In this document: positions 1,275-30,200 of the stretch, one piece after another
Position numbering within the stretch: the stretch's first letter is position 1
Layout of the letters: every line of letters begins with the position of its first letter
Origin: Tubulanus polymorphus
Taxonomy: Eukaryota > Animalia > Nemertea
Assembly: GCF_964204645.1 (NCBI RefSeq)
Contig: NC_134032.1
Span: forward strand, 6,622,275-6,686,274
Length of the DNA stretch: 64,000 nt
Direction: 5' to 3'
Position numbers and translations under genes: made by a program
The notes under the pieces: generated by a model
Seen by the model: only the letters and a program-made list of their open reading frames with translations
Databases searched by the model: none
Told to the model about the DNA's origin: nothing

Positions 1275-2061
1275 TTAAAACCATGTTTGCAAACTTTTTC
1301 ACCCTTGGTCCCTCACGTTATGAATTTCCTCCAACCTGACAATGGTCTCTAGTGAGAGTCCAAAGCATCGTGTCGATTTTTGATTCCAAAATTAATTTCC
1401 TTTTTAATCTTATATAATTGTATACTTACTAAAATCAAATATTTTATAAACACACATGTTTTGGAGACTCTCTCTAATCAGAAGAAATTGCTTCTCTTGT
1501 TTAGATAAACAAATTTCGCTTTCTGGCAAAATAATTGATACCATGCTTCTCATATCTGCTGACTTTAAAAGTGGACGCGGCTGGCTTCATACCCTGTACA
1601 TTACGGGCAATTAATTCTAAAATCATGTTCAAGCTGACAATAACAGATCCAGCAGCAAGAAATTAACTGATTCTATATTTTATCGCAACTTACAAAAAAA
1701 CCCGGCCGATCATGAGAAACAAGGTGACATTATTTTTAGCCACACCTTTCAAATTTGTATACAGTGAGTTCTAATCTTAATCTCTAATGCTCACCATGTC
1801 TGAGTGAACACTATTCATACTCTTAGCTGACAAGTAAAATAGTAGTCAAAACCTTGCGCCTCAGTTAACATCGCTACAGTTGACTGCCAAGCACTCTTGA
1901 CCATTGAATAAGGCGAAGTCTAATCTATCAAGTGTCTGTATGACAGGACGGATAGAAACAGTTTAACTAACTTTAAGCTCACCACAATACAGTCATCAAG
2001 CCCGCTTAAACTCAAGGATGTGGGCACACATTATGCTAAACCTACGTTTTCCAGGCAAGCA

Positions 2062-5000: not shown

Positions 5001-8000
5001 CACTACGCCGTATCATCCCATGGGAAACGGTGCTTGTGAGCGCTTTAATTCAACTTTAATTCAACGTTTGGGTCTTTTGGAACCTGCAAAGAAAATTGCA
5101 TGGAAAGATCATTTGTCTTCGGTTCTGTTTGTGTACAATTGTACGCCTCACGAGTCCACTGGTTTTTCACCTTATCGCTTAATGTTTGGCAGGACTCCGA
5201 TTTTGCCTGTAGACGAGGTTTATCAATTAAGCAAGCCTTCACGGCAATATACAGCTACTCGAGTTTAATTCTTTATGGGCTCAGGCCAAAGTAAAGTTAG
5301 CGAAGTCAGCCGAGAATTCAAAGAAATACTATAATTCCAGGGTTCGTGGTATTTCGGTCGCCGTGGGTGACTTCGTTTTGGTGAAACGTGTAGGCATTAA
5401 GGGACGCGATAAACTCGGGGACAAGTGGGAAGAAAATCCATATGTGATTGTATCCCAGCCTAATACGGAAATACCAGTCTACGTGGTTAGAGACACTGTG
5501 TCTGGTAAGACGAGGACGCTTCATCGGAACTTGCTGTTGTTCCTTTCAGTTCCGCTGCATCCAAATCGCAGCTCTGAGGTTGTTGGAGTTGGGAAACATG
5601 GTTCCGGGATTAGGAGAGATAAGACTAGTTCAGTTGAGCCTGTGGAGTTGGTCAGCAGCACGAGTTGTGATGAGACCGATGAGTTTATCTTGTTCGATCG
5701 GGGAGCTTCTCAGGGGACTTTTCCTCTTAATGAGGAATTGTCTGGTATCCCTCGTTCATTAACAGTGGACACCTCCGACGACGAATCTACTTTATCTGTA
5801 GTCGCATTGGACGTGAGTCCGGAAAGTCATTCTGTCGTTGAATCACCCCCCGTTGAGAGCGTTTCTCCTAATGAGGCTTGGCCCGACGACAGTCCGCTAG
5901 GTGTTGATACGTCTCTTGTTGCGGACGTGCCTTTTGATGAGATTAGGCCGGAGGTCGATCCATCTAATGAGGTGCAATCACCAGATTTTTCCGTGCGTCC
6001 AGCCCTTGCCGATCGTCCTACAAGGGTAAGACGTATGCCTGAACGGTTTGCTGACTATCAGGTTGGCGCTTTAACGGTAGGTCCTTCGTGGCAACAGAAG
6101 CTGGATACTTTGTTATTGGCAAGCAAAGATGCTTCGATAAGCGGAAATCCGACTCTGTTGGCAGCGGTCTTGAAACTATGTGAATAAGTATTTTTAAAAT
6201 GTCATCAAATGTCCGGGTTATTGAAACATGTATATCCATTATTTATCCAGTATATCCATTATTTTGCGTTGTGCGTTTTAATTCATTTTGGCTTTTTTTT
6301 TTCTTGTCTCTTCATTTTCGTGATGTCTATAAGATGAAGTCGTGTATTACGACAAATTCTTTGAAGCTACGTCGCTTCTTATGTGTTTATTTATCTCGAT
6401 CTGGGGACAGATTTTCTTTGGAAGGGTGGTGTAGATATGCCGGGTCTTTCAATATATATATTAATTTATGTGTGTGATGTAAGTTACATGCCTGTATGTG
6501 AAACTGGGTGTAAAGTTTGAAGTGAAATTTTTAGAATTAGTATTGTAAATGACTGTGGGAGTGGTTTGGATTTTGTTTATGTAAATTCTATTAAGTCACT
6601 ATTAATTAAGAGCTTGTAGTAGTTCTTGGTCGGTAATCTGTGCTTTGTTCTGAATGATTTCTCGCTGCGTTCCGTCCGTCTGGAAGGTAGGGAATTTTAA
6701 AAAAATATTAGATTGCTGAAACGACATCCTGTTTAAGTCACTTATTTCGGGGACGAAAGTTCTTGACGTTAAGGGAGGGTGTTGCCGGGCTGTTTATTCG
6801 GCGGTATAATTGATAGCCTCCGTTCGGTGCTGCCACCTTCATGGTCTGCATATAGTTTGAAGTCTTGGCGGGAACAGTGTTAGTTTGTTGGCGGTCCCCT
6901 TCCAGGCAACCACTCTGTGAAATATATGTTGATGTGATTTACACTGTTCCCGCAGGTAAGAAAGCTTCGTATGATTCTGACTTAATTATTTATCATGTGT
7001 AATATTTATTGGTTAGTTTGTTGGCGGTCGCCTTCCAGGCAACCACTCTGTGAAATATATGTTGATGTGATTTACACTGTTCTCGCAGGTCTTTCGTTGT
7101 TGTTTAATGTTGGTTGGTGGAGTAGACCTCCGGACAGACGAGGCATATACAGGATTTACAAGAAAGCCCCGTCACACTGGTAAGGAAAAAATACGTCCGC
7201 TGCCTTGTCTGACAAACGGTATCCCGTGGGAAAACTCGGTTACTATTCATAGTGAAAATGAAGAAATACTGTGTTTTAGGAAAATTCCGCAATTCCGTGT
7301 TACCATGATATGCAGAGATGCTAGGGCCAAAGTACCAAAATTCCGGAATTTAGAACGGGCGTTTTTGCATCGCCGGAGATGCAGTGTCACGATCGGCATC
7401 TTTCATCTGAAAATACGACGGCAGGCATTCGTTGTGCTTCACATCCCTCGCTGCCTTCTTATGCCGCGCGCTATCCGGGTGACGAAGAATATCTTTTTTC
7501 CCGCCACTACCGTATTTGACCTGGTCTTTACAAACGACGCTGTACGCCACGCCAGCTAAGTCTATCTTACGAATGTAGTTCGATAAGTAGACCCGTTACT
7601 GTCCTTACACTCTAGCCATTGCCAGTTAAATTTATTTTTTATACCGCTGTCAATTGCCTCTATATCGGCCAACTCCCAACTGACAATCTTTCCCTGCGTG
7701 CTCATTTTGCAGACCGTCCCGCAAAAAGAAAGTTACAAAGCTGCGTGCCTCAGGAAATAGCACGCGCGTGGTAATAATTAAGATGATATTTATCAAATAT
7801 TATCTTAATTATTACCACGTGCATCTTCACATTGTTGGCCGTCAGCGGGACGATGTACAACGGCCGGCGCGTAAAGATAATTGACTTTTAATTGGAAATG
7901 GCGTCACAACAGTTGCGCTCCGTCTACGCACGCACAGATACCACAACAAGCACACATATATACATTGTAGCAGATCGTCCTCGGAAACAGAGACCAAGAT

Positions 8001-11000
8001 AAAATAACACAGAAGCGACGACGAGTACAAACAAACGAACGCTTTTACTGTCCGTGCCATTACTGGTCGCCGCGAGGAATTCTCACCAAATTTCCGGAAT
8101 TGACATCGGCGATCCTAAATTTCCGGAATTCCGGATATTTCCGGAAAACTAGCATCTCTGGATATGACAAAACTGCATTTTTTTTCTGAGTGTTTTTTCT
8201 ACAAATCTTTTTGGAAGGGCTGCAGAAAAAATGAAATATAGTGAAAACTGTATTGGATTGAATTCAAATGATGGGAGAAAACTTTTTGTGCAGATAATTA
8301 GATCGAAAATAAGGACAGAAAATATAAAGAAAAAGGTTTATTTTTTGGAATTAAGAATGGAAACTTCAGCATGAGTTTTGGCAGAATTGCAGTAGATCCA
8401 TGATCCCAGATAATAAACTAGGGGTCCAGTCACACCATGCCCACTTGGGAGGTGGTTTGAAATGCTCAACAAAAAGAGAATTTCAATATTATACGCCCCT
8501 GGTAACACATTCAGATAGCAATGGCCTTAACCCTCTTGTTACTGGATTTCAACAATGTACTACTCAGACACATATATTTCTCATAATTGCAGTATGAATA
8601 GGAGTCATTTTCAAACATGACAGCTCCATTATCAAAATAGACACAGATTTTAGAAGGGATTATAACAACCTTTCAAATGATTTAAAAACGTTCTGTATAA
8701 GCTGTAGTTGGCGCACTGGGGGTTCATTATAGTTATTTGACTCACTTTCACTTCCGGGTTTTAACTCTGAATCATCTTCGGCAATATAATGACTATCAAA
8801 TGGATAAATAAAAGCTGATGCCCCCTATCAGCCCAGCAGGAGTATTTTAATCGCAATTATCAACTGAGGTCTTTGACGAGTGTATCTATTTGTGTACACA
8901 CTCATGTGTGTGATAGACTGGGACTACGTCATCAATATGCCTCGCTTTGGAATTTAAATATGGTGACTCTCATCTACCATAAATTCTGCCGATATGGGTT
9001 AATCAGGGAGAATTGGAAATTTCAACTAGCACTACGCTAAACAACAAAAGTAGAAATGAATGGCTAATTATAGTTTTATCACTGCAGTTCCCCTTTGAGA
9101 CCTATTAGGGTTACACAGTGCGACTTGCAGTAGGGACGTAAAATTCTTCTAAACTCTTGTTCCAAGTCATTACAAATGATTCTTAACCCATTAGCACTTA
9201 AGCCACCAGTAACCGCCCTGTCTATTACCGGTACTCCTCAAGCCGCATAATCCCCCCCCTCCATTTGTCGTATGCTGCACAAAAATGGTTTAAGTGGGAT
9301 TCAAACCCAATAGCTTATGATAAACTAGACATCTAAGTCCTCAAAATGCCGTAAAGAAATCAACAACCTCCTATTTCAATTTCTTAAGTATTTAGAGTAT
9401 GAACATGACAGATCTAAGCGCTCACTTCAAATCCAAGTAAGTTTCGATGTATTTCAGGGGGCCAAAAGGACACGATTTTGGTGGCCCACCTAATCAAATC
9501 TTATGTCATATGAAAGCCTTGACTATTACAGCCCCTACTACAAAATAACAAAAACTAATAGTGCACGAAAATAAACAGCAAAAGAGCTATTCGGTATCGT
9601 GATGAACTTGGATTTTCCCTTGAATTTTCTGAGGAGTAATTGACACTACATGGTGAAAGTCCTGAGAGCTAATGGGTTAATTAACTACTTGTGTACCTAG
9701 AAAATTCTGTATGCGCCCGTCTTTGCTCCACTTTTTTTCCTTCTTCATCAGCAAATAAATCGGAACGCCCGTCGTCAATATAAGCGCCATGCCGATCAGA
9801 GTTTGAAACGGTCGCGTGATCACCGGCAAAACAATCAGATATATCGACACTAAGGTGAACAATACCGGTACTATCAGCCACACCTGAAAAATATAGTACA
9901 AACACTATACAACAAACGCCATTGGTATCCTCGGCAAAACTTTTTACTGTAGAGAGGTTCAACCCTTTCAGTGATGACTCATATCCGAAAGTGCTGGTGA
10001 TAATTTGAAAACTTTAAAATATTCCATCCAGTGTGTTCAATAACATGCATACCGCTATAGTGCAACTTCATCTCTGAAAACTGTTGGCGTTAAGACATTG
10101 GCAGTGGCATTAAAAAGGATGGCAGTGGCCATGGCCTGGGACTGCATATCAATTGCTTTTATTGACTGTTTTTACAATACACTATAGGAGGAATCTATAT
10201 ATATATATATATCTAATCCATTTTTGATATATCTTATGTATCGCAAATTCAGGTTTTTTGATATATCAAAATTTCTAAATTTGTAATGTTTTTATGAAGT
10301 TCAGTAAGTAGGATACAACAGAAAGTGTAGTTTCGTTGTAATTCTTAACTTCTGCATCTACCATCTTGTGATGTGACTTTTCTATTTGGTGCTTATTCAG
10401 CCTGCTCTTTCTGGGATTCCCGAAACATTCCTCAAGTTTAAATATCAGACTCATCACCTCTCTCTTGTTATGATCAAGGTACATTGTTTTTGTCTAAACA
10501 GCTTCATTTGTTTCTACTTCTAAACTAACTCTCGTAACCTACACTTCATTCTCTTTACTTGTTCTCACTTATTGCTTCCTCCCAAGCAAAAACCGTAGAC
10601 TTATATTCCAATTTCCTACATTCCTCAAATTCCTAAGCTATGTTCTCACCCTATTCGTACCTGACTCCATTTAATGTGTTCAGGTTTGGTCTGTTTTTAG
10701 TAATGTTTAGTTTTACAATCGTTACCCCACTATACCCAACATCTAATAATATTTACCAATCACTCTTCAACTCCCTCCTGAACTAACCTTCGAGTCTTTC
10801 TATTTCAGTAATAGTAACTCCACCTGAATTCGCTTTTTTAGTAATGTTTAGTTTCACGATAGTTTCACTTACAACAATAGTTACCCCACATCTAATAATA
10901 GTTCTTATTACTTCCCCGCTAACTCCCACCTTGTAACTTGAGCCACTTTTTTCTTAGCATGCACACATCAATCGCATGCTACAGTGCACACACTACTTCG

Positions 11001-14000
11001 CTATTCTACTATTGGCTCAACAATGCGACCTACGTACCTTAATAGGTCTCTCCCAGTCCGGCTCTTTCCAGCGGTAAATGAGTAACCCAACAACTGGCAC
11101 TACTATTCCAACGCAATCGACAAATTCTAAATAGTTCAACAGTTCATAGACATTCGAACTGACCAGCATTAAAGAACTGAACAGACCCTACAACAAAAGA
11201 ATAAGAAACGAAAAATAGAACAATTTAAGCCAAGTTCTATCTACAAGTGTATAGGACTGATTGTCGAAACTAAGACAGCCACCAATTGCGTAAAAATTGG
11301 CTGATCACAATGCCAAATAGAATCTGCAGGCCTAAGTATTCAGACAATAAATGAGCTTATATTGAATTAAAAAGTTTACAGCACAGCCAGCTTTTGTCCG
11401 GTGGACACTTGTGTCCAATCATACTTCCCAAAATAACTGGATTATGTCTACCGATAGATGAACGGACAAAAAGTGAACACAATTGCTCACTGGGCTTCAA
11501 GTCCGAAGTGGGCTAAAAATTGAGGTTCTGTGTAAGGCCACAGGATGACCATCTTGACTATGAGAGTTGGTTACATTTTATACATACGTACCATGATTAA
11601 CAGGGCGGGAATTGGAGTGAAATACTTCATGTTGACCATTGAAAACACTTTTGGCAGATGACTAGATCGAGCACCAACAAATAAAATTCTAGAAAAAAAA
11701 TCAAAGACCTCAATTGTAAGTGGGCCTAGTAACAATTGTTTATAACACAGTATTAAATAGAAGACTATTCAACCCTATCAGTGCTGACTAAGTAATTCCT
11801 AGAAGTGCTGGAGATAATTTGAAAATTCTTTAAAAAATTCCACCCTTAACCGCGTCTTAACCGCAGTTTATTGTCAGTTACTAATGATGCACTGTTGTTT
11901 GACAAGTGCCGCCAACTTATCATCAATTTATATACCCATATGTCACTGCAGTGTAGATGCACTGAAAGGGTTAAGTAAACTAACTTGCTAAAAAGATACT
12001 TCACTTTACTCATGATAAGATTGGCAAATGACAATTTAAACGATCCCAATCACTCTATCCAGTTAATTTTGTGCTCTGAGTTAACATACATTTGGCAGAC
12101 AGCTAATACTCCAAAACTAATGGTTAACAAACAAAAGGTCTACGGGCCTTATACCTTCATGACGCAGTAGCAGAAGAATGATCCAGTATTCAAAGTTTTA
12201 CAAACAGTTTTACATCGTAACGATGTAACAAGTTTTAAAATAGTTAAGATGGTATAGGTTATGTGGCGATAATTTTCATTTTCTGTTAATATATCCTAAC
12301 CTGAAAAGGCAAGCCCATTTTTGCTGCCCCATAGATCACACACTACATGAAAAAATTCTTACACCTATAATCATGAAAATGCATCAAGAATCCCAGGCCA
12401 TTTCGTGCTAGAAATTCAAGATGGCTACCCTGGCGGCCATATTTGAAAGCTGGTGACCTCCATATACAATAGGCATGGACAGCTTACCTACCCTGATCCT
12501 CACACCAAATTTTGCAAAAAACCATCAAGATTTGCAGGCTGTATCGTGCAAACAAGAAATTCAAGATGGCCACCACAATGGCAGCCATATTTGATCACCA
12601 ATGACCTTTTTTACAATAGGGGCGGACATCTCGTCAGACCCAATCTTCAAGCTTATTTTCAGAAAGATTCATCACAAATTACAGGCGAATTACTGTGTCA
12701 AATTCAATTCAATTCCAGAGGGCCTGGCTTAGGCCTAATGCAATAGGAGAAAATAAAGATTCGACTTTTTGAAAAACCAGCACAGATGCCTCTTCAAATC
12801 ATATGTAATTCAGAAACTCAGTGCTTCTTAGTTTGATGTCCCTGTTTGCATAACGCACGTGGTTTATGGGATCATTCATTTATTACGTACGCAAAAAATT
12901 TGAATTTTTCAACCCCCCCTCCCCCTCTGTACGCAAAATCGGCCATTTTTTCGTATACATTAAGCATTACAGTACGCAATTGTACTGACCCCTCCCCCCT
13001 CCCCTAATGCGTACGTAATAAATGAATGACCCCTATATTATTGTTTAAATCGAAACGTCTTCAACAGCTGATATAACCGCATCCGCGCCTGTTAATCATC
13101 TTAATTGATTCATATACTAAAATGCTCACTATAAAAAAACTTTTTCCGGTGAATCAATTAGGAATTTTTCAGTAGATATCAGACACTAAGTACCGTTCTT
13201 TACAGGTTTATTTGTTGTATGTCATTAACGATCAGTTATATAATACTTTATTCATAACTTTGAAGCGGCGCGCCGGCAGCAAACGCTCAAGCAAGGTCAG
13301 TCACGTAAGCCAACGATAACACGAAACAGACCATGGTTTTTCGGGTTAAGAGCGTCTCTCCACATAAATTAGAGGGACTATAATGACAATTTGTTGACAC
13401 TAACCTTTAATAAACTTCGTATGGATACAATCAAGATAATCCACCCTATAATTCCACTATTCAATGATTGACACGCAGCTTACACATGGCGCCGCCATTC
13501 ATTACGCTAGTCATAATGTATCTCAACGAACATCAAAGTCACACTTGAATTACAAGTGTTGAATTATGAGAAACGATTGAAATCTAGCAATTTGATAGGG
13601 AAAATAGCAGCACTATAGTTCAAAAAGGTTGATAAACCAACTCCGACTGTCTAATCATTTAAAAGCTTTGCCTTCACATGGAACTATTTCTGATTTATCA
13701 CAGGTGCACTCTGCCGCCGTGATTTGCCCATTCAACGATAAAAACTTTATTAAAAAAAATATATATTAAAAAAAAGCGAAAATTCACAGTATTTATTCGT
13801 ACGACAAATCTTCATCTGAACTCCCACCATGAAGTTATGAGTAGTGACACGAAAATGACGTCATCGACTCACTACCATCTTATAACCTTCATGACTATGT
13901 CATGAAGGTAAAAATATAACTTAACGAACCTGGAAGCCATTAAGAATCCAGCATTCACGCCACCGAAAACCGATACTGCTACAAGAACTGGAATGCACCA

Positions 14001-17000
14001 AGTAGCTGCAGCCAGAATCTTACCACCGTAACTCTGAAATTGAGAAGACAATTATAGGTAAAGATCTACGGAAATGTTTTTCGATCAAAATAAAGACTCT
14101 TTTCGGCAAAGATCTCAATCGACACATTTCATTCTACATTTCCTAATGATATACACGAGGTTACGTTGCATCGAAAAAACCATTTTCTAAAATAAATATC
14201 AGCATTATCGAATAACAAACTGTGATTAGAATAAAAATGAAGTATTAGCAATATTAGGCTGTACCTTTGCCCATCAAGTCATAGATTCACAATTAAGAGT
14301 AGAACAGCCATGTTAACAGGGTGTAGAATGAATACGCTGGGACGAGTAGTACTTTAGGTGAACAACTTTATTTTAAGAGCTTTCACTACTAGCGTAGAGT
14401 AGCTTCTGATGAAGCAATTCCAGCACATGGCTAATCAGCATATCATCATCCATCCAATTTTAGAAAAAGTTATTTTACCTGAACCTTACATAATTGTCAA
14501 TGATATTTTCTGTAGTGCAAATAGAAAATTCCTGCCAAAAACCAAATCAACTAAAGATTTCCCAAAAATCGATCTCGATATACAATTCTAAATCTTAAAA
14601 CCCGGAAGTAGAACTGTAGACAATACTGCGCGATTCGCGTGAACACATTTCTGCAGCTAAGCCAATCATAGAGGAGTTATCGCTTTCTGATTAACTTTTT
14701 TGAAACTGATATTTTTGCGTTCAGTTTTTCGCGATAAAGCTCATATAAATTTTAACGAGGCACTCTTTCAAAATTCAGCTTCATAGGGGTTGGAGAATGG
14801 ATAATGCTCTAATGAATGATTTGTATGAATACATGCTCAGTTGCACAGTCAAAGGGCTTTTACTCTGGAAACCATGTCATTAAAATTCGCTTCATTTGTA
14901 TAGTAATAGGCTCAGCCTACGGCTGGCCTAATAATAATGTATGAAATTCCTTATTTAAAAAAAAAATTTCTTATTCTTGTAAAAATTCTTTATTTTTGAA
15001 AAAGTAAAATAAAGTGTCAGCTCAAAATGAACACCTTTAACCCTATAGAACGATAACCACACTCAAACGTGGTAAACGGATGATAAGATAAAAACCCACT
15101 ATCTACAGATTAACACGTTCACTGCCACCGCTAGCGGTTGAGTCCGGTCGCCATTGCCAACGCTAATTTTTTTACATTATACAGTTTATATGCTGCCAGC
15201 ACTATTGGTACATTGATAAATCATTACACTATGTATTTTAGTATAAAAAAACCGACGACGAGATAACTCGTCACTGGCAATAGTGAAGAGATTCTCTTAT
15301 TTTTCCTGTCCCCGTTGCCAGTGACGAGTTATCTCGTCATGGCTTTTTTAACAGGGATCGAACAATGTAGTAAATATAAAGCCTACTATTGTTTCTAAGG
15401 TGAATGAGACCCATATAAATCCTAGACACACATGCCCATTACAAAATGGCGTGGCTGACAGCATCGTAAGTGACTAATATGCTGATGAATTCTGCGTCGG
15501 AGCATACGACAGACTCCGACGACAATGTTGGATCCGAAAGCTCGGATGCTGGTGATGATACTGGTACCGGTAATGTCACTACTGGCAATGAATCCCAACT
15601 GGGATCATCAGTCTTGGAAGACTCAGGAGAAAGTTCAGATTCTGATGAGTCAGATGGTCCCGATGAGTCAAGTGGAGATAACTACCACAACTCATCAGGA
15701 TCCACTGAAAGTGAAGATAATTTGGTACCAGGACCCCGAGTTCGCGGCACAGGAGTCCGTACAAGAGATGGAGGAGTCCGTACAAGAGGAGGAACATTGC
15801 AAGCCCGTGGGCGCCCAAGAGGTCGAGTAAGAGGTGCGGTGAGAGGACTGAGAGGTGGGACAGTATCCCCACCCCCAGGAACTAGAGGCCCCAGAAAGCG
15901 TCTGAGAGATGGTGCCATAATCGCCCGAGCTGGTGTAACAGCTGGACGTATCTGTCGGGGTCGACTTGGTCGTCAGAATCCGGCCACCCAACGTGCTGCT
16001 CAGCCTGGTCGCCCAGCTGGACCACAAGCAAGAGTCCACCAGTGGACAAATGTGCCGGAAGATGCTCCCAATTTTGCCTTCAATCAAAATCCAGGACTCA
16101 TAAATCCCCTACTAGATGGAAAATCAAATGACTACTTTGAGATGTTTCTCAACCAAGATCTGATAGATATGATGGTCAGAGAGACAAACAGATACGCTAG
16201 AGGTGTTATCAACGTAAATCGGCCAATGAGGAGAGAATCAAGACTGAAAGCTTGGAAGTCTACCGACGCCGAAGAGATGAAGCTATTTATCGGTCTACTC
16301 ATGCATATAGGCCCAGTTACAATGCCCACATTAGAACATTATTGGAGTTAGAGTGGGCTTTACAATATTCCAATATTTGGCAAAGTTATGCCTCGTAGTC
16401 GCTTTCAATTACTTCTGCGATTCTGGCATTTTGTAGATAACAATCAGCAACACGACGATCGCTTGTATAAGATACGGCCAATTTTGGATCATTTTGCCAA
16501 TATAATGGACAATATTTACTACCCCAAAAAAGAACTAAGTAATGATGAATCAATGGTTCTTTGGCGCGGTAGGCTGGTTTTCTGCCAGTATATAAATAAC
16601 AAACGCCACACATATGGCATCAAGTTATATGAACTTTGTGAGTCACGTGGAGGACTCATTTTGAGAGTTCGTATATACAGCGGCATCCAGGTTCCAGATC
16701 CCGACAGTCTTGGACAGGCTGCTGCTGTAGTTCTTGACCTCATGGAAGGATTCCTTGACCACGGACATGTGGTTTTTACTGATAATTTTTACAACTCTGT
16801 CAGTTTGGCAAAAAAAATGACTGACAGATCAACCTATTTATGTGGTACACTGCGTTTTGATAGGAAGGAAAATCCCAAGGATGTTGTGAAGAAAAAGCTA
16901 AAAAAAGGCGAGCATCATTGGCTAAGATCGCAATCAGTTGTAGTTTCTAAATGGAAAGATAAACGGGACGTCCTTACTATTTCAAATATGCACCGTGTAG

Positions 17001-20000
17001 AAATGGTCCCAGTTACAAATCGAAACGGCAAAATTGCAAACAAGCCAAACATTGTCCGCGACTACAACAATGGAATGTCTGGAATCGATAGAGCCGATCA
17101 GATGCTCTCCTACTATACAGCCCTCAGAAAAACTGCACGGTGGTATAAAAAAATTGGCACACACATGCTTGAGATTTTCCTTCTGAATGCCTATATCTTG
17201 TATCGTGATTATTGTCAAGCTGATGACAGAATGACATTGCTGAAATTTCGTCAAGCTATCATATGTAGTCTTCTTGGTAACTTTGTTGAACCGGCACCTC
17301 ATGTAGCTCATTTCCCTATGTTTATAGAACCCACAGGCAATAAACAATACCCAACTCGTAGATGTCGTGTCTGCTATAATAACAACATTCGACGAGAAAC
17401 ACGATACATGTGTAACGCATGTCCCACTAATCCAGCCTTGTGCGTTGACCCCTGTTTTCAGATGTACCATAACCTGTAAACTGGTAAAATTGTGAACGAT
17501 CAAATGGTTAATTAAAGGAATAAAAGTTTTATTGTAAAACTAATATACAATGATCTTAGTCGTTTTATTCTCTGAAATCTGAAATTCTGAATAGAATCTG
17601 AAATTCGTGCTTCCTGGAGATTTTTCTAAAAAATTTCAAGTGTGCACCAAACTCGAGTTACCCCCATAAATTTTATATTTGTCTCTCCATACTGCCAGAC
17701 TATTATTTAGCTGGTTTCTCCCCTGTGCCAGGTCGTTTATAACGCTATGAAATGACGTTGAATCGATGACGATATAACTCGTCATGGCAAGCTGCAGTGC
17801 ACCCTCCATGACGATTATATCGTCATTGGCAGCGAACGTGTTAAAAGAATTTAAAAACAAGAATTTTTTTATTCAATCTAAAATATATATATGACACAAC
17901 GTTTCGATCTCACCCTAGAGATCATCGTCAGGTGTCACACCTTTAACCCTTTCCGTGCTGTCTGATTAATACCCTATAGTGCTTGAGAAAATGTGAAAAT
18001 TTGGGAAAATTCCACCCTAGTGTGTTGAATAACGGGAATAGCACTATAATGCATCTACACCGCGGTGCGGTGTATCATTAGTTACTAATATTTCACTATG
18101 TTTCACAGGTGCTGCCATCTTTCAAGAGAGATAATTACTAATTAAATCAATACAACGCAGCACGGTGTACTAGCAAAATCCATCACCGATTTATACACCG
18201 GACTGAAAGGGTAAACCCTCTCAAATAGGCCTAAAGATTGGAAAGACCTTTCAGCTAAAAATACCATTTTTTACTGCTATGAACCTTGAAGAATATGCCG
18301 GATTCTTAATGACTGAAGAAGGGTGGTTGAAAACAACCAAAACATTTCTTACAATTTTCAAATGAAACGATGTTGGACTTTACATCTATAGCCTAATGTA
18401 CATCTGTAAATATAATTCAAATTTTAGGTGATTCATAAATTTACTTTTAGACGGTTCATAATTTGAATTTTAGATGGTTCATGAATTGACATTAAGATGG
18501 TTCATAATTTTAATCTTAGATGGCTCATGAATTTACTTTGAGATGGTTCATAATTTGAACTGTAGATGATTGATAAATCAACTTTAAGATGGTCCATAAT
18601 TTGACTTTAGGATGGTCCTTAATTTGAATTTTAGATGGTTCATGAATTGACATTAAGATGGTTCATGATTTTAATCTTAGATGGTTCATGAATTTACTTT
18701 GAGATGGTTCATAATTTTTTACTGTAGATGATTGATAAATCAACTTTAAGATGGTCCATAATTTGACTTCAGGATGGTCCTTAATTTGAATTTTAGATAG
18801 TTCATAATTCACTTTAAAGAGCATATGCCATCAAAATAGAATATTGTGTAAAATTCATTTTCAAATGTGATTATTCACAAATATCAAATATGGAACTGGT
18901 TCGAATTTTAGTTCAGCCATTACTGAGAAATGTGACTTTTAAATCGGCAATTTCAGCACGTGCTCACTATTATTGTTTATCTTAGCAGGTGCGTGATTCT
19001 GACGCCATCTCTGACAAACGCTCGTGGCTTCCAGTCATTTTACTAGACATTTCATGCGATATTTTATCGTTTTGGAGTGATCTGAATTAATAAACTCTTA
19101 CCATTGTATAGTGTTCCTACCGTTGTATATGACATGATAATTGTATATAAGTGAGTAGCGCTGTAGGTCAGCGATTTTATCGATTATACATACTCTACGC
19201 ATACTAGCGCGCACACATACTTGTGTTGATTGTCAAAGTTAACACCATAAATAGCGCCACCCGCGGGTTGAATATGAACTATACGCATGGAGTGAAGGGT
19301 AAATAGATGACTATTCCGCTAACTATTACGGCTAATTCGTGCTCCTTTTTTCAATAAGTCACATCTCAGGTCGTTATATGTATACCAAAGTTTCTTCTGG
19401 TTAAGAAATCGCGGAAAGTACAATTTTGATGGTATTCGCCCTTTCAGATGGTTCATACGTAATTCACATTTTAGATGGTTCATAAATTCACTTACAACAG
19501 CAACTGCCGATGACAGCAGAATTTCGGTCGGCGTCAATACCGTCAGGTATGCCAGATTCGTCAATACATATATCACAGTCACTAGGCACATCGATATACC
19601 TAATGACACAGGCAACGTTCTGAAAATAAATCAAATTCATGTAATCATGTATATTCATATCGCTAATACTGGTCATAAAAATATCCCATATTTCTTTCAG
19701 TGTGACTTCACTGCAATGCTTAATGGTGTACAAAATTAATTGTTACTGATGGACTACACTAGGATACTACAAGATGGCAGCACCTGTCAAATAAAGCACA
19801 ATCTTTAAAACATTCTATGTAGCTTTAGTAACAGAAGAACAATTGAACAGTGAAATATTAGCAACCAATGATACTAAGGTCATCCCAAAATATAATGGTC
19901 TATTCGCTGCAACCCGACCGACCTGACTTCAAAGGAAAACTTTTTCAGGGATTCATTGAGATTTTATTTTTGAGAAAAATGGCCGACCGACCTACCCACT

Positions 20001-22156
20001 GCCAATACATGCGCTACATATGATTGTAGTCAAATGTGCATCATGTGAAAACATGCCTCGCCTAGTCATGTAGCCTATTTTAAGTTTTTTGCAGGAAACT
20101 GACAGTCTTCCAATAAGTTGCCAATGATTCTAGTGACTTTAAAGCTGGTAATTTCATAACGCACATATATTCAAAGTATTTTTTCATTTTGATCACAGGG
20201 ATGATGCTCCGGATGAAGCTAAACAGTAAAACTATTCTTGAAGTCTAGGCTTTTAGACAAACTTCCCGTGCACACCGCTGATTGTGACATTGTTTTGCAT
20301 GTAAAAGGTGTTAGAATTTTATTTTTCAAAAAAAATTTCTTTCTTCCTACTGACTCACCCTAAAAAGTTGAGTCGGAATAACGGCAAATAGACAATGGCC
20401 TTAGATGGCATAATGATGGAATTTTTCAAAATCTCCAGCAGTTTAGGGTATTGATTTAGCACTGAAAAGCTTAATGAATTCAGCAAATGTTATGGTCAAT
20501 GACTATAGATAAGGTTTTGCATACCTGTGAGGATCTTTCAGTTCTTCAGTTATACTATTCAAACTATCCCTGCCAAAGATAAACAATTCTAACAGATGTT
20601 ACAATTAGGAATTGGAAAATGGAAAAACACAAGGTTCTTTTCTGATCACAGCGTGTAGAATTCGAACTTTACAAGAATCATTTCTTTGGACATATGTATA
20701 TTGCTCTACTGACAGTTCCCTCTTCCTTCAAAAAGTTATTCTAAACCACTGAGGGAATTTTCTTTTTATTCTACCTCGTAAACCAAGCTATCAAAAAAGG
20801 CCTTAGGTTGAGGGAACCTGCTAATAACACTGAGTGGTGCTCAGTGGGTTGAAGGTAATAAGAAATCTCGAACCCAAGGGAGTGAAATTTAAGAAGAGAA
20901 TATTACTTACCATCCAGCATATGAATATATACCAGCATAGAATCCGAGAGCTACTTGACCCGGACTAGTCGCAGAATTACGAAAGGGTTCCTGGAAGTTA
21001 TCTACGTTTCCTAGAAAAATATGATCATTGCGGAAATTACAATAAAGTATATTTTGACCCAATATGTGGTAATTATCTTAAAGACATATTATGGTAAATA
21101 AGAAACAATAACAGTTACCTTTAAACAACATTACAATTCCGGATATGATGATGATGACCAGTGCCAGCACTTTACTGTATGTGCAAACTTCGATGACCCG
21201 CGTAGTCAATTTGATGCTGACGCAATTCAACAGAACAACGATTACTGAAAAAATCACAACCATACGTAGAGAAATTTACTGGCAAATATCACACAGTTCG
21301 AATAGTTCACAGTTATTAGTTTGTGAAATTTGCCCCAGCGATTATACAACAGGCAATCTAACTGGTGCAGTAGGTATTTCGTGCAGCAAACCTGCGTATT
21401 TAGGCTAATGCCGATACAGATTAGGTTGCAATACCTGTCGAGGAAGGATGCAAGAACTGCTGTAAATTTGAAATTATTGACGTTCTGATGAAAAATAAGA
21501 AATGTTATAGAAGCTGAAACGATGGATGGATCACACTTAGGTCAGTTGTTCAAGAGTAAGTTGAAGTGAAAATGCGAGAAAATTGACTCACCGATGACGA
21601 GAAACGCGACGATTCGCACGGCTGAATCCGGGGGCGAGACGCACGTGAAAACATCCTGCAGAACGTACTTTGCGAATATGAGCGCCGACAAGCAATTACC
21701 AGTCGGTATACGCACGATGAAATAACTCCACAACAACAAGAACGCCGGCATCTCTCCGAACATTGCCATCAGATATGTATACGCACCGCCTGATGCGGCG
21801 TACGTCGTACCCAGTTCGGCGTAGCACATAGCGCCAAGCAGCGCGTATACGCCGCACAGCACCCAGACAATTAGCGATAAACCGGGCGAGTGGCAGTAGA
21901 GTATGACACCCTGCGGGCTCAAGAAGATACCGCTACCAATTATAATACCGACGATACAGCTTACACTGCTACGTATGCCTAGCGTTCGTTTCAAATTCAC
22001 TCTAGATTGGTCACCTGGTGAATGATTGTCATCATCATCATGACTGTCGTCGCTGTGATTTTCGTAGTCATCATCGCCTGATAGTGAGAGCAACGGTATT
22101 TCACTGGTCTTATCATCGTTTGCAGACGAGGTCAGCACCGTTCGACGCACAGGCAT
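2062..22156 (-). CDS. SLC7-family L-type (heteromeric light-chain) amino-acid transporter, 10 coding exons, 521 aa
   Basis: Minus-strand exons, all GT-AG with consistent phases: 22156-21592, 21244-21119, 21010-20911, 20569-20525, 19619-19496, 14033-13930, 11688-11592, 11187-11038, 9883-9697, 2129-2062 (1566 nt incl. TGA). Motifs [76 protein letters not shown]-terminal [11 protein letters not shown] splice acceptor at 22165-22166 just upstream of the ATG implies a 5' UTR exon. Orthology (SLC7A5/7/9/11-like) cannot be resolved by eye. Confidence 0.93.
2953..3786. mobile_element. Tc1/pogo-like MITE (TA TSD)
   Basis: Degenerate CAGTGGAACCTCGTTCTAAC TIRs with TA on both flanks; inverted relative of 28075-28861. 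Confidence 0.85.
3892..7176 (+). mobile_element. Ty3/Gypsy LTR retrotransposon, internally deleted (integrase only)
   Basis: TG...CA LTRs at 3892-4155 and 6780-7176. 4-bp TSD CTGG (3888-3891 and 7177-7180). PBS TGGCACCCTCGATGGGA follows the 5' LTR; PPT AAGGGAGGG at 6771-6779. gag, PR and RT are absent. Confidence 0.95.
4219..6187 (+). pseudogene. Gypsy integrase (HHCC, DD35E, GPY/F-like), disrupted
   Basis: LHDDLGH...C..C; [19 protein letters not shown]; [15 protein letters not shown]; [12 protein letters not shown]. In-frame TAG at 4429-4431 and a frameshift near 5250-5360. Confidence 0.92.
7313..8160 (-). mobile_element. hAT-like deletion derivative with 6-bp TSD and transposase N-terminal remnant
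   Basis: TIR CAGAGATGCTAG, TSD GATATG, subterminal TCCGGA repeats. Minus strand from ATG 7705 reads MSTQGK...[16 protein letters not shown](fs)[43 protein letters not shown] (zinc-finger-like). Confidence 0.82.
8417..8525 (-). mobile_element. HINE-like 3' fragment
   Basis: AACTAGGGGTCCAG..CACCATGCCCACTTGGG matches the family 3' end. Confidence 0.7.
9187..9676. mobile_element. piggyBac-type MITE (TTAA-CCC...GGG-TTAA)
   Basis: TIR CCCATTAGC with TTAA on both sides; inverted paralog at 48742-49216. Confidence 0.82.
11420..11519 (-). mobile_element. HINE-like 5' fragment
   Basis: Reverse complement of the 5' hairpin/microsatellite region. Confidence 0.65.
11773..11970. mobile_element. Short piggyBac-type MITE (CCCTTTCAGTGC TIR)
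   Basis: Relatives at 17947-18211, about 9963-10075 (partial) and about 20425-20474 (partial, inverted). Confidence 0.7.
12867..13034. mobile_element. Small MITE
   Basis: ~26-bp TIR GGG(A/G)TCATTCATTTATTACGTACGCA. Confidence 0.8.
15114..17840 (+). mobile_element. piggyBac DNA transposon, full length
   Basis: TTAA at 15110-15113 and 17841-17844. TIR CACGTTCACTGCCA / TGGCAGCGAACGTG. Subterminal GACGAGATAACTCGTC-type palindromes at both ends. Confidence 0.96.
15446..17479 (+). pseudogene. piggyBac (PGBD4-like) transposase with two in-frame stops
   Basis: Single frame from ATG 15446 with TAA at 15467-15469 and TAG at 16349-16351. DDD triad (NDESM, TDNFY, GIDRADQ) and C-terminal Cys-rich domain RRCRVC...CNAC...LCVDPCF..YH. 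Confidence 0.93.
17892..17937 (-). ncRNA. Minimal type-I hammerhead ribozyme
   Basis: Minus strand reads UGACAC-CUGACGA-U-GAUCUC-uagggu-GAGAUC-GAAA-CG-UU-GUGUCA. Helix I and helix II are perfect, the core is CUGANGA/GAAA, and helix III is a tiny palindromic AACGUU. Confidence 0.8.
17947..18211. mobile_element. Short piggyBac-type MITE (same family as 11773-11970)
   Basis: TTAA-CCCTTTCCGTGC ... GGACTGAAAGGG-TAAA. Confidence 0.7.
18415..19493. repeat. 21-22-bp minisatellite (TTTAGATGGTTCATAATTTGAA-like), interrupted at 18818-19442
   Basis: Tandem units at 18415-18813 and 19443-19493, with a higher-order ~150-bp duplication; abuts the SLC7 exon 5 donor. Confidence 0.85.
18818..19442. mobile_element. 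Kolobok-like non-autonomous DNA transposon
   Basis: TTAA-AGAGCATATGCCATCAAAAT ... ATTTTGATGGTATTCGCCCT-TTCA: imperfect TIR, AG..CT termini, TTAA-like target. Confidence 0.6.
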
Positions 22157-24055
22157 CTCACGTCCTAAAACAATAATATACGTATAATATATATATCAGG
22201 ATCCAGATTTAACAGGGTCCCTATATTATCAGATCATTTACTCCTGGATATAAGGAGTTTTAATGGAAAGAGTTTCAAGTAGACTCCTCCTATATCAGTA
22301 CTCTTGATTCAATATTTCATAATCAGATTTCTATTCTATACACTACCTAAACATGGTTTCCGGTAACTTTTTAATAGGGTAAAAAAAAATTGCCCATGGC
22401 CCAAGTGGTTTTCCATAGCTTTATGAAGTGAAAAGATGAGCTGCTACGGGATTGTTCAATTAGTTCTATAGCCAATCTTTCAAGCCCCCAACAGAGTAAG
22501 CATATTTTCAACATACTCGAGAACATACCTATTAATGGTTACTACCGCTGCAACTATGAAACCAAGTGAAATGTGGAATAGGAGTCCAACTGGACACAAT
22601 CAGAATCCTCATTACATTTTTTTCTAAATTCTGCCGATGCGGCCATCACGATGATAGTTAGAATAACAACAAGAGTTTTTTTAGTTAAAGGCCTAGCAAA
22701 TTTTACTATTTTATTCAATGCTGTATATAATGAACTGCCCACTATGTGTAAATGATTTACTAAACGATCTTCCATCGATGTAAAATAAGCCCAGCACATA
22801 CTACGAGCATTATTATGAGCAAGCGCCCGATTTGCTCGGTGTAAACGAAATAATGGTCGTCTGTGGCAACAGGAGATTTAAATTGCTCATTGTCCAAAGG
22901 ATTTGCCTCAATATCATATTATGTTTGATAATGGGTGACAGAAAATTGCTTGTCGTAATGAAATTGCTCATCGATTGCTTGGTGTTGCTGCGTGTGCACC
23001 AACTGGAGACGCCAACACACAAGCAACTAATCAACTAGCCAATGAGTGAGCGCATAATCATAATGGAATAATTCCAAATCGGCGACTTTCGGGGCAGTGG
23101 CGCGGCCATTTTGACATTTCACATGATACAGATGTTTGCAGGCTAAGATAATCGTCTCTCCATCTCCAGTGATAGCACGCGGGAGACGCTAAGCGATCGA
23201 TTGCTCAACGGTTGCATGCTCAACGGTTGCCTGCTGAACTGGTCGCAGCAACTGGCGGCTAACAATCGACTCACTCGCTACTAAACAATGCTCAAACAAA
23301 GCGAAGTGAGTAATTTCCGGAACAAGTTGCAATTCAACTGCAATCATTTGTCCTGTGCAACAATTTGGCTCGGGCCTGGTCAGTTTTTTTGTTGGGCCAA
23401 ATTCAGCCCAGGCCAAACAGGCCCATTTGGCAGTGAACAGGTGTTCCAGGCCAAATTTTGCATGGGCCAAAAATGCTTGTATGATCGCAGCTGATGTAAA
23501 ATGACCGGACCCTAAAATGAAATGTTAGGGTATTGATAGTATGAAAAGTCTGAAATGTTACCTTTCAGAGAGAGTTCATTCAACATTTCATCTAGGCCTA
23601 TATATCCTTATAGGCTAGTCATCTTCAGGAATAATGAGTATGGAATACTAAACTAATAATCATGCCCCAACGATTCGTAGGTCCATAATGAGTCTCATCT
23701 CAATATTCACAATTGTTATTGTTACAAAAACATCTTTGCAACAGTTTTAATGGGCTGAAAAATGTTTTTACTTAGGCTGAGTTGAGAATTTTTAAAATCC
23801 ATAAGCATGTAACAGCATGACAGCTGCATGAAAAAAGTAAAGAGCTTTCGTTGTTTGCTTTATTCTGGGTGCAATCTGTCACATTACAAATTGTCAATAC
23901 ATGTACTACTAGGTAGCGTTCATTATGTACCTACACAAACTGTACCATAGCTAGAACATACTTTAATTAGACATACGTAGAGAATACCCCTCGGCCAGTG
24001 AGTGAGAGTAGTGCATAGAATGCAAAATTGTAATAGGGTACACACCTGACACTAA

Positions 24056-24248
24056 TAAGATAAAATCCCACTATTTAAAGATTAAAAGAATTTAAAAACC
24101 AGAATTTATTTATTAAATCTAAAATATTTAAAAGACACGACGTTTCGATCTCACCCTAGAGATCATCGTCGTCACACCTGACTAATCTAAAAATAGTGGG
24201 ATTTTATATTATTATCCATTCACCACGTTTGAGTGTGGTCATCGTTCT
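24056..24248. mobile_element. Second copy of the Penelope-type element, with an internal inversion
   Basis: 12-bp direct repeat ACCTGACACTAA (24044-24055 and 24249-24260). 24056-24170 runs in the same orientation as copy 1 (hammerhead core truncated, GUC site); 24183-24248 is inverted. Confidence 0.8.
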
Positions 24249-26028
24249 ACCTGACACTAAGTTTCATCTCAAAAAAGGTTTCAATATGGCAGCCATGTTC
24301 GATAACATACATGCATCAAAAACACTAGGGTTTATCCTCCTCTTTGCCTTTAATACACAAACCAAGGCATACAAAAATCAGCAAAAGCTATAGATTTAGA
24401 GCAAGAGAACGTGGTCCATAATGCCTATTTCAGACAAAAAAATTTGGTTGCTTTCGATGACCTATATATGTCTAAAATAATAGGGCTCATCTCACAATAT
24501 TAAACTAGAGTTCAAGACACCGACATAACTGTGGCGGCAATCTTGGATGACCTACACACATCAAAAACAGAAGAGTTTATCCCCCTTTTGCTTTAAATAC
24601 ACATACCAAGTGATAAGAAAGTCAGTATAAAACTTTAGACCATGTGGGAACAAGCTCCAAAATGGCTATTTCCCATACCAAATCGACTGTGGCGGACATC
24701 TTGGATGACATGTATGTCAAAGACAATAGAGCTCATCCTCCTTTTACCATAAACCATAGACCAAGTAACCAGAAAGTAGTTCAGACTAGGGAACCAAAGG
24801 TCCTGAGGCTCGGAATAGAAATGCTCGAATTAGGCAAATAATTAGGCAAGGTATGGATTGAGATTGGATACGATTAGGCCTAGAGGGAATTAGAAACGAA
24901 AAAGTGTCCTATTCGTCAACGTGCATGTTCAACCCGTCAATCTTGGTGCACTGTGTAGTTACTACACAGTGCAAGCATGTTCAACTTTGATGATATACAC
25001 GACAATGGATTTTTCCCATGACTCACTAACCCATAGCAAAACTAAATGGTTCTTGATGACGAAGTCACTGTAGTAGAACAACAGATTAACCGTGGAAGGA
25101 ATAGCCCCGACCTGTTTGAAGAAGCCATGGACATTCAATTTTCAGCGGTAGTCAGAATATGAATGCCTATAATTGACCTTACCCACCGGATTAGTACTTG
25201 TGGCATCTGTTTACTGATGGTTACTGTCGTGTCGGAGGTTCAATAATTCAATTGATTTGAATTGTATCGATTTACCCCCTCTGGCATGCGAGTTCATCCA
25301 CAATTCAATTTGAATTTTATTGACATAAAATAGTTGCCTAATCAGAAAGTATATGATGAAGATATTTGATCAACCCGGTTGATGTTAAAAGTAAAATCTT
25401 AAGAAGAATATAATTATTATTATCATTATTGTTATTGTTATCGTTATTATTATCATTATCATTGCTATATTTGCTAATGTATATTGTACTATTTGCACAC
25501 AATCATACAATGTTGTTTCCAACCAGTTGAGGCTGACAGTTGTTTTGAAGGAGATACTGACCGGCAACCAGTCTTCCAAGTAGGTTCAATAATGCGGGAA
25601 TACGGACGGACCACGTCCACGAAAATGTTTCATAATCATAAAATAATAATTATCACAAAAATGACTGGACATTTCGAAGATCACACCAGTACGTAAAAGC
25701 GTTCATAATTAAAATTAAAAGAATTCAGACAGAGAAAAGAAGAATTTCAAAGATATACTATAATTGACTAATACGCGGGATTCGAACCTATTAGTGATAG
25801 CGTCTACTTTCAACGCCCCCAGCCGCTGTATTTAACGCCGATTTACGCTGCCATTTGCAGCTTTGAAACGATATTGCGCTACTCGGTAAGGCGTTTAACT
25901 ATCTTTGATATGCGTGTCTGGGTTTTAAGAAACTTTTCGATCGGTTGTGGCCGAGCGTTTGAACTTGAATGAACTTTTCATTCCTTCGCTGTCCTGTGAG
26001 CCGACTGGTGTTTGGTGGCTGGCGCTGA

Positions 26029-27210: not shown

Positions 27211-30200
27211 ATGGAGATACTAAAATACGATCATGACAGTCTTTCTGTTGATATGTGCTCAACAAACATGCAAATGGTAAGATTTACTTGGCTTCCAAAT
27301 CAAAACCTGTCTTACTGCAGTCAGGGTGTTCTGTCATCCTGATATAATTTGCATATTTCATAATCATATAGATCTACAATGTCATATCGAACAGTTCATA
27401 ACATTTCATAGCTCTAATACATATTAATAAAAAATAATGATAATAATAATATAATATAACTTATGACTATAGTGTCAATATGTGCTTTAAGGTCGTAATC
27501 AACATGTGACATTACTCAACATGTTTTCACGATAATTAGCTATAGTCAGTGCTCATCGATAATTAATCAATGTCTCTCAAACATGTCACTAGGTGTTTGT
27601 TTGTGAGTCCTGATGTCTACAACTTGTCTGACACCTAGTTCTCACATTATACTCATGATTCTGTATATAAAGACTATGTTAAGCTATGATAATCATTCTC
27701 ATTCCGGGATGCAATAAAGATTGTACATATAAGGTTTAACTGCCTTGTTGTTCCTGATGGATGGAATCCTGTACCGCTGGTGTAAATGCTAGTTCCCCAG
27801 CCAGCTCGCCAATACAACAACCAGCCGGTTACAGTTCTATATTCATTGGCATTCAAGAGATTTTGAAAGTGCTGTTTTGGATAAATTAACTCAACAGTCA
27901 TTTGGAATACTGCAAAATTTATACATGACCACCAGTACACTGTTCAGTTACGTACCAACAATTGTTTTCATTTCTTTATTTTTTCCGATTTCAATTATTA
28001 CCATTGTTGTTATTAAGGTTTTTTGACTTTCGTCGAAAACCCTTTTGTAATTCTGTTGATTATTATTATTATTACAGTGGAACCTCGTTCTAACGAACTA
28101 ACGAACCATCGCTTGTTACGTACGAAAAACAAATCCTCATTTGCAATTAAATTTCATCGGAAACAACGACCCTTTTCTAACAAACTTTTGGTTATAACAA
28201 CCTTAGTTTTGGAGTCCTATTATATATTTTCATCTGTTCTAACGATCGTTAAGCCACGATCAATCACACTTGTTTAGTTATTGTCAGTTTCAAACCGAGA
28301 GAGACAGACTTGTTATTTATCTTAGATTAGTGATACAGATTAATGATGTGTTGCTGGCTGCTACAATTTGTAGTACGGTAGTCGGTCATTGTTTCAGCCT
28401 GTTTACAGTTATGGGCACGCGCTCAATGAAAACGTACTTCGCAAAACAATTACCATCAGAGAAATTGAAAAAGGGACTAAACGCTCTGAAGTTTTAAAAT
28501 TGTTCTGACGTTTTATCCGGCATAGCGTTGTTACATTAATTTCCTTGCTCTCGTTCCAAAGCATCCCCTGGGAGGGACTTATGCGTCCAACACATGTATT
28601 TGCCACTCAAAGTTAAGGAGAGCATATCTGAATTTGGTTTAAATTGATATTTTATTTCACAGCTTACAGTTGTCATTGAGCGATTTATTAGTTGACAGTA
28701 TTTATACTTACATAGTAGGCCTATTACAATGAAAGCAGTTGGTTTGTGTTTCATCACACCAGGGGGTGTTCCTTTACATACATAAACAATGTGAAACAGA
28801 TCTAACGAACTATCAGATTTTTATTTTTCCCCCAGCAGTTCGTTAGAACGAGGTTCCACTGTACGTATTTTCCACTTTTTTCGTCACATAAATTTCATCT
28901 ATCAGATTCGACAACTAACACATTCTAAACAAAATTTTGTACTCTGATAGTAATATAACAGTCTCTCTCTCTCTCTGCATAGATTATATGTATGTACTGT
29001 CCATCCTATTTTAAACTTAATTACTTTCTGTCAGACAGCAAACACCTGCGGAAATATGGATCTAGAGATCGGCAATCAGTATGTCCCTTCAGGTGTTCCG
29101 TACAAGGCCTACTGCATACTGCTGTACCGATAATACGTCAAAAAGAGGAATGCTCAGAGAATATTTTCAATTTTGGCCGCATGGCTTGTCAGAACACCCA
29201 TCATTGCTGCTTTGCAGCTCTGTTTTCATGTATCTATATGTTAATAATGTACATAACTTGACACTTTTTTGGTTAACAATTATCATTATAGTGTTGCTAT
29301 TAATGGACATTGTACCTAAGCAAACCTTTGATATTATGATTCTTTGTCAAATAAAGTCATATAGGCCTATACTTTTAAAGAAATGATGAAACTTACCACA
29401 ATTGGATCATGAGCATGAAACTAAGTGTATGTGTAGATATGTGAACTAAAAATGAATATGCATTCATTCATTATTTCAAATTTCAAAAGAATGCATTTTT
29501 CATTGAAATGTTAAAAATTATATCTGGGAAAAAACTGTGCTTGATCCCCTCTGCTTAAATTCCTGGATCTGCCCCTGTACATAGGCCCAGTGCAATTTTT
29601 ATTTGGCCTGTATAATATGAGGAATGATGAATGGGTATTAATTAAATCTGAAGAAATCTGGCATCGTTTCCTACTGCACACGAGCAACATCAGGTTGATC
29701 CTCGCTCGCCACGGTCAATTGTGGAGATCTCATTCTCTTTAAGTGCTTTTTTTTTTTAAGGGAGCAGATAATTGCGGCAATCAATTGCGGATCAGGTGCG
29801 GTGACTTGTCGGCAACACTAATTAAGGATCAATTTATGTGTCCAGGAATCCATTCGTTATGTATTCAACTCAATGATGAAGACACCGATGCCCTTGTTAC
29901 TCCTAAGAATTTCACCGACATGGCCGGCAAGTCGAGTCTGAAAGATTGGAAGACGGCAATACGTATCAATGGTAGACCGCTGCGGTAAGAATTGAAGATG
30001 TCTCCATCTATTTTGGGACTACAATTACCAGTTAATTGTAACCAAAATTGGGCAACTAACCTTAGACTGATCGAAAGTCTACTTTTGAAGATCCTCAGAC
30101 AATGCATGGTTTTTTTATCGAAAGAGGGGTAAATATGTGGTATTTCGATCAAAAAAGACACAATTCGCTGTACATGGATCATAAAGGTGGCCAATGCATT

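Follow-up and report, generated by a model that had tools for sequence, protein, structure and literature searches.

A 161-bp unit carrying a minimal type I hammerhead ribozyme motif is located in an intron of an SLC7-type amino-acid transporter gene of the nemertean Tubulanus polymorphus, within the 64,000-nucleotide stretch analyzed here (the window; contig NC_134032.1 of assembly GCF_964204645.1, positions 6,622,275 to 6,686,274). Its best explanation, which we regard as quite probable, is a solo end piece of a pseudo-long terminal repeat (pLTR), running from hammerhead to tail, that was inserted by the enzyme of its own Penelope-like element and was later split by a piggyBac transposon, with a ribozyme that is probably inert in SLC7. 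Minimal type I hammerheads are known from the pLTRs of metazoan Penelope-like elements, individual animal genomes reportedly containing thousands of copies of the motif (Cervera and De la Pena 2014, PMC4209133). As far as tested, the family to which the unit belongs and its host species are undescribed in this respect. Window numbering is used throughout; the sense of the unit is that of the minus strand, and its 5' and 3' sides are given in its own sense.

Anatomy of the unit and its hammerhead

The unit (copy A) is bounded by the 14-mer ACACCTTTAACCCT, repeated exactly on both sides (Table 1), and in silico excision of the nested piggyBac joins parts of 69 and 92 bp into 161 bp. The original prediction had described a retro-inserted unit of ~160 bp between 14-bp target-site duplications (TSDs) once piggyBac is removed; this description stands, the duplication being exact and a true TSD. 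That the 14-mer might be a repeat internal to the element was ruled out, as other copies diverge directly behind 17935 and a second copy in the window (copy B) has a different TSD. The last 8 nt of the right TSD consist of TTAA and the first 4 nt of a neighbouring miniature transposon, and CCCT occurs again behind that transposon at 18216-18219. Because of these shared bases either the unit or the miniature transposon may have been inserted first, the duplication measuring 14 bp in both cases. The TTAA-flanked miniature family also occurs at 9958-10070 and 11768-11974; it is very abundant, with several copies in SLC7 introns.

The piggyBac insertion duplicated its TTAA target (15110-15113 and 17841-17844) and has 14-bp inverted ends CACGTTCACTGCCA at 15114-15127 and 17827-17840. 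Its transposase frame (15470-17479; Pfam DDE_Tnp_1_7, E=4e-70) is broken by a single in-frame stop at 16349-16351. The piggyBac-free junction exists as DNA: it is found in copy B, which is 90-92% identical, and in contigs of run X1 that skip piggyBac from 15109 to 17841 (6 contigs) or from 15110 to 17843 (5 contigs). This run is one of four public runs from one organism, comprising at most two samples of one study and used as contigs only, one of which may be the window's own source. The runs were compared over 14700-18380, run X1 also over a 246-bp stretch containing copy B. The empty-site joint from 15044 to 17951 was not among the joints listed (15 of 96), which, given a high-copy repeat on either side, says nothing on polymorphism. 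At 16349 an A is found in contigs of runs X1, X3 and X4, which diverge from the window by ~2% along the piggyBac body; these runs therefore hold a sibling piggyBac copy lacking the stop. The left end of an older piggyBac relative, 80% identical, lies at 1081-1278.

The core of the hammerhead is intact at every position and in type I order, from C3 (17931) to A9 (17925; CUGANGA) and from G12 (17905) to A14 (GAAA). An extra unpaired U (17924) separates A9 from G10.1 (17923), which pairs with C11.1 (17906). Helix III is replaced by the palindrome A15.1-C-G-U16.1 at 17902-17899, devoid of a loop, just as the original prediction of a 2-nt palindromic helix III had it. U17 at 17898 completes a GUU triplet, and the cut is predicted between 17898 and 17897. 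On sequence grounds, the putative ribozyme thus combines the features of a minimal hammerhead: core, extra U, G10.1-C11.1, palindrome, short helix I and long helix II. The minus-strand fold and cut site proposed earlier are accordingly located down to core, helices and triplet, the cut itself remaining a prediction. Both helices had been called perfect. This holds for helix II, which comprises 6 bp (17923-17918 with 17911-17906). Helix I counts 6 Watson-Crick pairs in this copy (9 including G-U) and is partly accidental, being extended by the junction: pair 5 is formed with base 17936, which is foreign to the family, and pair 6 with the first base of the TSD. The family helix I has 4 bp (17935-17932 with 17897-17894), since the family head reads CTC-ACAC-CTGA. 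Compared with the minimal hammerheads of Penelope described in PMC4209133, where helix II has 7-8 bp in Schistosoma and 6 bp in D. virilis, the unit matches the latter in helix II length and differs by its U17.

A hammerhead search had been proposed along with the original prediction. A relaxed descriptor gave a single match on both strands of the window and none in 150 simulated 64-kb windows matched to it in dinucleotide composition, by which a chance motif is ruled out. An Rfam scan of 14000-19000 returned five unrelated weak matches and no hammerhead family at E<=10; because the motif has no helix III, this null result is no evidence against a hammerhead. A coding frame starting in the hammerhead was rejected, as it closes early in copies A and B. 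Read from the sequence, the frame from the helix II ATG of the unit ends after 15 codons, while the open reading frame of Anolis Poseidon starts at this ATG (PMC11167929). The unit has no coding frame, unlike endonuclease-positive (EN+) Penelope/Poseidon elements.

Table 1 Positions of the unit, its parts, related copies and adjoining features in the window
Feature	Position	Strand	Remarks
SLC7-type amino-acid transporter gene	9680..22156	-	nine coding exons mapped; last exon beyond 9680 unmapped
Left TSD	15031..15044		ACACCTTTAACCCT; 3' flank of unit in own sense
3' part of unit	15045..15113	-	69 bp; holds TTAA targeted by piggyBac
Candidate Penelope 'tail'	15047-15082		~36-nt terminal segment; missing from sense arm of copy B
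piggyBac-type DNA transposon	15114..17840	+	nested in unit
5' part of unit	17845-17936		92 bp
A/T-rich spacer	17845..17891	-	3' of hammerhead; varies among family copies
Minimal type I hammerhead	17892..17937	-	only descriptor match in window
Right TSD	17937..17950		first 6 nt with unit head form palindrome AGGTGT-C-ACACCT
Miniature piggyBac-like transposon	17947..18211		high-copy; CCCTTTC...GAAAGGG ends; flanks TTAA and TAAA; neighbour outside unit
Copy B, whole	24044..24260		12-bp TSD ACCTGACACTAA at 24044-24055 and 24249-24260
Copy B, minus-sense arm	24170-24056	-	lost C3-U4 and 5' strand of helix I
Copy C, decayed hammerhead homologue	1334..1374	+	76% over 41 nt, E=0.002; core broken

Copies in this organism and sister loci

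The unit is a member of a very abundant dispersed family with sharp ends. The copy-B stretch attracted 1,321 contigs of run X1. Summed depth was ~260,000-317,000 over the copy-B hammerhead against 29.9 on unique flank in this run, and tens to hundreds of thousands over both unit halves against 66-80 on the piggyBac body in the four runs, summed contig depths not being equal to copy numbers; contigs that bypass piggyBac are numerous. Loose ends behind 24170 (82 contigs of run X1) gave the consensus AGGTGTGAG followed by noise, with an agreement of 0.47, where 0.42-0.51 is expected for nine shared letters and a random flank. Behind 17935, loose ends were found in all four runs (56, 16, 23 and 20 contigs; agreement 0.40-0.44). 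The 3' end is sharp as well, with loose ends behind 24249 in 23 contigs of run X1 (agreement 0.42). Since contigs built from short reads tend to end where repeats branch and are biased towards unique flanks, any minority of copies running on into a full element would be under-counted.

Ribozyme cleavage does not set the 5' end of the copies, since these keep the whole core. Indeed, such a role was ruled out by a depth over the core as high as over the spacer, and no loose end at the cut site was seen among the 6 of 112 rows listed for copy B. Variants of at least 3% in run X1 numbered 0 across the 36 hammerhead positions 24135-24170, versus 7 rows in the spacer (24100-24134), which is taken as support for selection on the motif at family level. 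Copy B reads GUC with no variant of at least 3%; GUC is therefore taken as the family state and the GUU of copy A as a private CpG change. The same hammerhead and tail also occur with quite different spacers of 33-40 nt (joints 15097-15113 to 17893-17894), pointing to several subfamilies in this organism.

Copy B combines its sense arm and an inverted 3' part (24183-24248) in a head-to-head arrangement. Further head-to-head joints were found in contigs, from 15107/15111 to 17935 on opposite strands and in five cases from 24164/24170. The sense arm of copy B, a single example, stops ~36 nt before the end common to copy A and the inverted arm of copy B; contigs ending at this short 3' end mostly continue into the tail (run X1).

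A link to a coding element was provided by one pattern scan of metagenome contigs, which yielded seven loci in animal-like DNA, six of them distinct (L002 equals L003). The scan pattern fixed helix II and required the extra U and G10.1-C11.1, and the sister rows are biased accordingly: as required, both features are present in 6/6 distinct loci, with a helix II of 6-7 bp. GUU is the triplet in 2/6. The sister hammerheads are 89-95% identical to that of the unit over 38-40 nt and have a different spacer. In L007, a contig apparently from another animal, a frame with reverse transcriptase (RT) and GIY-YIG domains, as called by Pfam, ends at 1695 and is followed 216 bp behind, on the same strand, by a hammerhead (1912-1945) identical to that of the unit at 37/40 nt. 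This near-identical hammerhead behind an RT and GIY-YIG frame therefore ties the motif to Penelope-like elements. The earlier assignment of the motif to a Penelope-like terminus is supported by this homologue and by an anatomy that fits.

Stubs starting 0-15 nt ahead of the core make up four of the six distinct sister loci, and one locus runs into a coding frame. Upstream pLTR sequence of at least 145 bp is common to L006 and L007. Both have TATATAAA at 34 nt and TCATT at 8 nt before the core (L007:1878-1912, L006:153-187), a pair that likely marks a transcription start. A TATA box with an initiator-like motif is described for the pLTR of Adineta Penelope (PMC3846280), and L006 and L007 are alike in this; D. 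virilis Penelope, with an internal TATA-less promoter (PMC2377424), is different. A weak GTGGG-T4-TCTT look-alike is shared by L007 and the unit at the short 3' end. Tandem arrays were absent from the six sister loci and from the three copies in the window. Hammerhead patterns had 0 matches in viral contigs (two scans) and 0 in genome contigs; 15 pattern matches to relatives of the L007 protein in viral contigs included none that was confirmed. PDB sequence searches with two L007 frames gave nothing meaningful, and the N-terminal L007 frame had no Pfam match at E<=0.1.

Origin of the unit and competing explanations

Traits described for Penelope elements include head-to-head inversions, a 30-40-bp tail, junction palindromes and TSDs of 8-10 bp (PMC8557442; PMC3846280). 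The family resembles Penelope/Poseidon EN+ elements in that its hammerhead lies near one end, inverted copies are joined head to head, the 5' junction has a palindrome and the TSD is short; its terminal segment is a candidate for the optional tail. For Anolis Poseidon it has been shown (PMC11167929) that reverse transcription starts internally (in vitro), that both target strands are extended, that cleavage depends on protein and that insertion does not require it. Applying these steps to the unit is an inference by analogy. A GIY-YIG nuclease would cut the target with a 14-nt stagger, and reverse transcription would start at an internal 'tail' site, as in Anolis Poseidon. Uncleaved RNA would be copied to a point a few bases ahead of the hammerhead core. 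The stop may mark the start of the RNA, as the TATA box and the initiator-like motif of L006 and L007 would suggest, or a stall of the enzyme at the hairpin. This would leave a solo end piece, whose TTAA was later entered by piggyBac, and copies would decay afterwards, the change from GUC to GUU being of the CpG type.

The start of the target matches the unit head on the other strand, over 6 nt in copy A (ACACCU) and 7 nt in copy B (ACCUGAC); the orientation would permit pairing. These two TSD-flanked cases, picked after the fact, are a lead only, and the match may correspond to the known palindromes at inverted junctions. A rather unlikely extension would take each stub as a full copy of the beginning of the Penelope RNA, reverse transcription starting at the first tail site and running off at the RNA 5' end, with the first bases of the hammerhead as a landing pad for the second DNA strand. 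This would predict an excess of target ends complementary to ACACCUGAC.

Several results weigh against the assignment to a solo pLTR end. L007 clearly shares only the 40-nt hammerhead with the unit, and no Penelope frame was found among the long frames of the window (12 scanned against Pfam). Covariation in the helices is limited to two pairs changed on both sides in six distinct rows, a value as high being reached in 24/500 shuffles. No shared sequence longer than ~9 nt appears upstream in the loose-end consensus, though short-read contigs break at repeat branch points. The folding energies given below, on which the expected inertness partly draws, leave out tertiary contacts and proteins.

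The original prediction favoured a separate non-coding family mobilised in trans. In this explanation a short non-coding source gene with its own transcription would be retrotransposed by a Penelope enzyme, which would account for the fixed ends and very high abundance, the loose ends devoid of common upstream sequence and the several spacers that occur between an unchanged hammerhead and tail. Trans mobilisation via pLTR sequences and non-autonomous derivatives have been described (PMC3846280; PMC8557442; bioRxiv 10.64898/2026.07.22.740005). Solo pLTR ends explain the same anatomy, however, and in the sister family stubs of the same kind (4/6) stand beside copies that reach the full pLTR and the coding frame (L006, L007). 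Moreover, the sister TATA box lies upstream of the stub, so that stubs would lack it, and no tandem array was found at the three window copies. A dedicated family is thus considered unlikely, and the separate status claimed earlier stays a proposal. Animal non-LTR retrozymes (bioRxiv 10.64898/2026.07.22.740005) share with the unit a non-coding nature, a type I hammerhead, pLTR ancestry and solo monomers. The unit might accordingly be a monomer left by a tandem retrozyme replicating via circular RNA, to which its size of 161 nt and type I topology fit. Retrozymes are however defined by tandem units each with a hammerhead, whereas the unit is solo, TSD-flanked and of fixed head and tail, and neither the window nor the six sister loci have such a tandem arrangement. 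A circle opened by the ribozyme predicts starts at the cut site or permuted copies, while the observed copies have their 5' end upstream of the core and their 3' end at a fixed tail. This origin is hardly credible.

An SLC7 function of the ribozyme appears equally improbable. SLC7 identity rests on a minus-strand match to Pfam AA_permease_2, and by its GT-AG borders the intron that contains the unit extends from coding exon 5 (ending at ~19496) to coding exon 6 (starting at ~14032). The earlier claim of a ribozyme sense to SLC7 in intron 5 is confirmed by these borders for coding intron 5, introns being numbered between coding exons. This orientation, the intact core, the helix I extended by the junction and a GUU listed among cleavable triplets (PMC3138052) would suit a hammerhead retained to act in cis, cleaving SLC7 pre-mRNA by itself or together with a copy from another transcript and so tuning splicing or level. 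As a monomer, though, the lone hammerhead cannot form helix III and would need a partner and, probably, the protein of the element as well. An open-core fold is predicted at -19.5 kcal/mol versus -23.5 kcal/mol for a rod in which G5-G8 of the core are paired (unpaired with a probability of only 0.01-0.17); for the dimer, a double hammerhead is predicted at -39.5 versus -48.0 kcal/mol for the best fold. In vitro, minimal hammerheads showed no cleavage when single and weak cleavage as dimers (PMC4209133), and the Anolis hammerhead cleaved only with protein (PMC11167929). The GUU differs from the family GUC, GUC and GUA being given as the fastest triplets (PMC3138052). Copy B, the nearest partner, is without C3-U4 and is located 1.9 kb upstream of the first coding exon. 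SLC7 is therefore unlikely to be affected, and because of the lone monomer, the GUU and the predicted rod pairing G5-G8, the implied importance for SLC7 pre-mRNA is weak.

Significance and neighbouring features

As one more example of a known motif the unit matters little. Its only use is as a record of Penelope-like integration: the ribozyme core is preserved entire in the copies, whose first base lies a few nucleotides before it. This agrees with in vitro evidence for uncleaved RNA as the template (PMC11167929). In the literature no passage placing a fixed 5' end of solo copies at the hammerhead edge was found, no successful search having been aimed at it. If pairing of target to RNA held across hundreds of copies, a testable role for these hammerheads would follow. 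If the landing-pad reading were true generally, the uncleaved hammerhead would guide integration, which would explain junction palindromes and head-to-head inversions and give the motif a role.

The unit is adjoined on the left by another high-copy repeat (14700-14935; summed depth up to 112,000 in run X1), followed by an A/T-rich run. Coding intron 5 also holds a tandem array at 18412-18817 with a 23-bp unit and a higher-order period of 161 bp. Elsewhere in the window, four short arrays of one 154-bp unit (31778-32223, 43359-43677, 47875-48478 and 54314-55331) represent a dispersed satellite or a repeat-bearing transposon. A retrotransposon at 37020-42350 has long overlapping frames with RT and RNase H domains (Pfam RVT_1, RT_RNaseH), a layout that we take to be reminiscent of DIRS elements. 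A remnant of an LTR retrotransposon with integrase occupies 4105-6184 (Pfam rve, Integrase_H2C2), and exons of a SAND-domain gene are located on the plus strand at 29743-30957 (Pfam SAND, E=1.5e-19).

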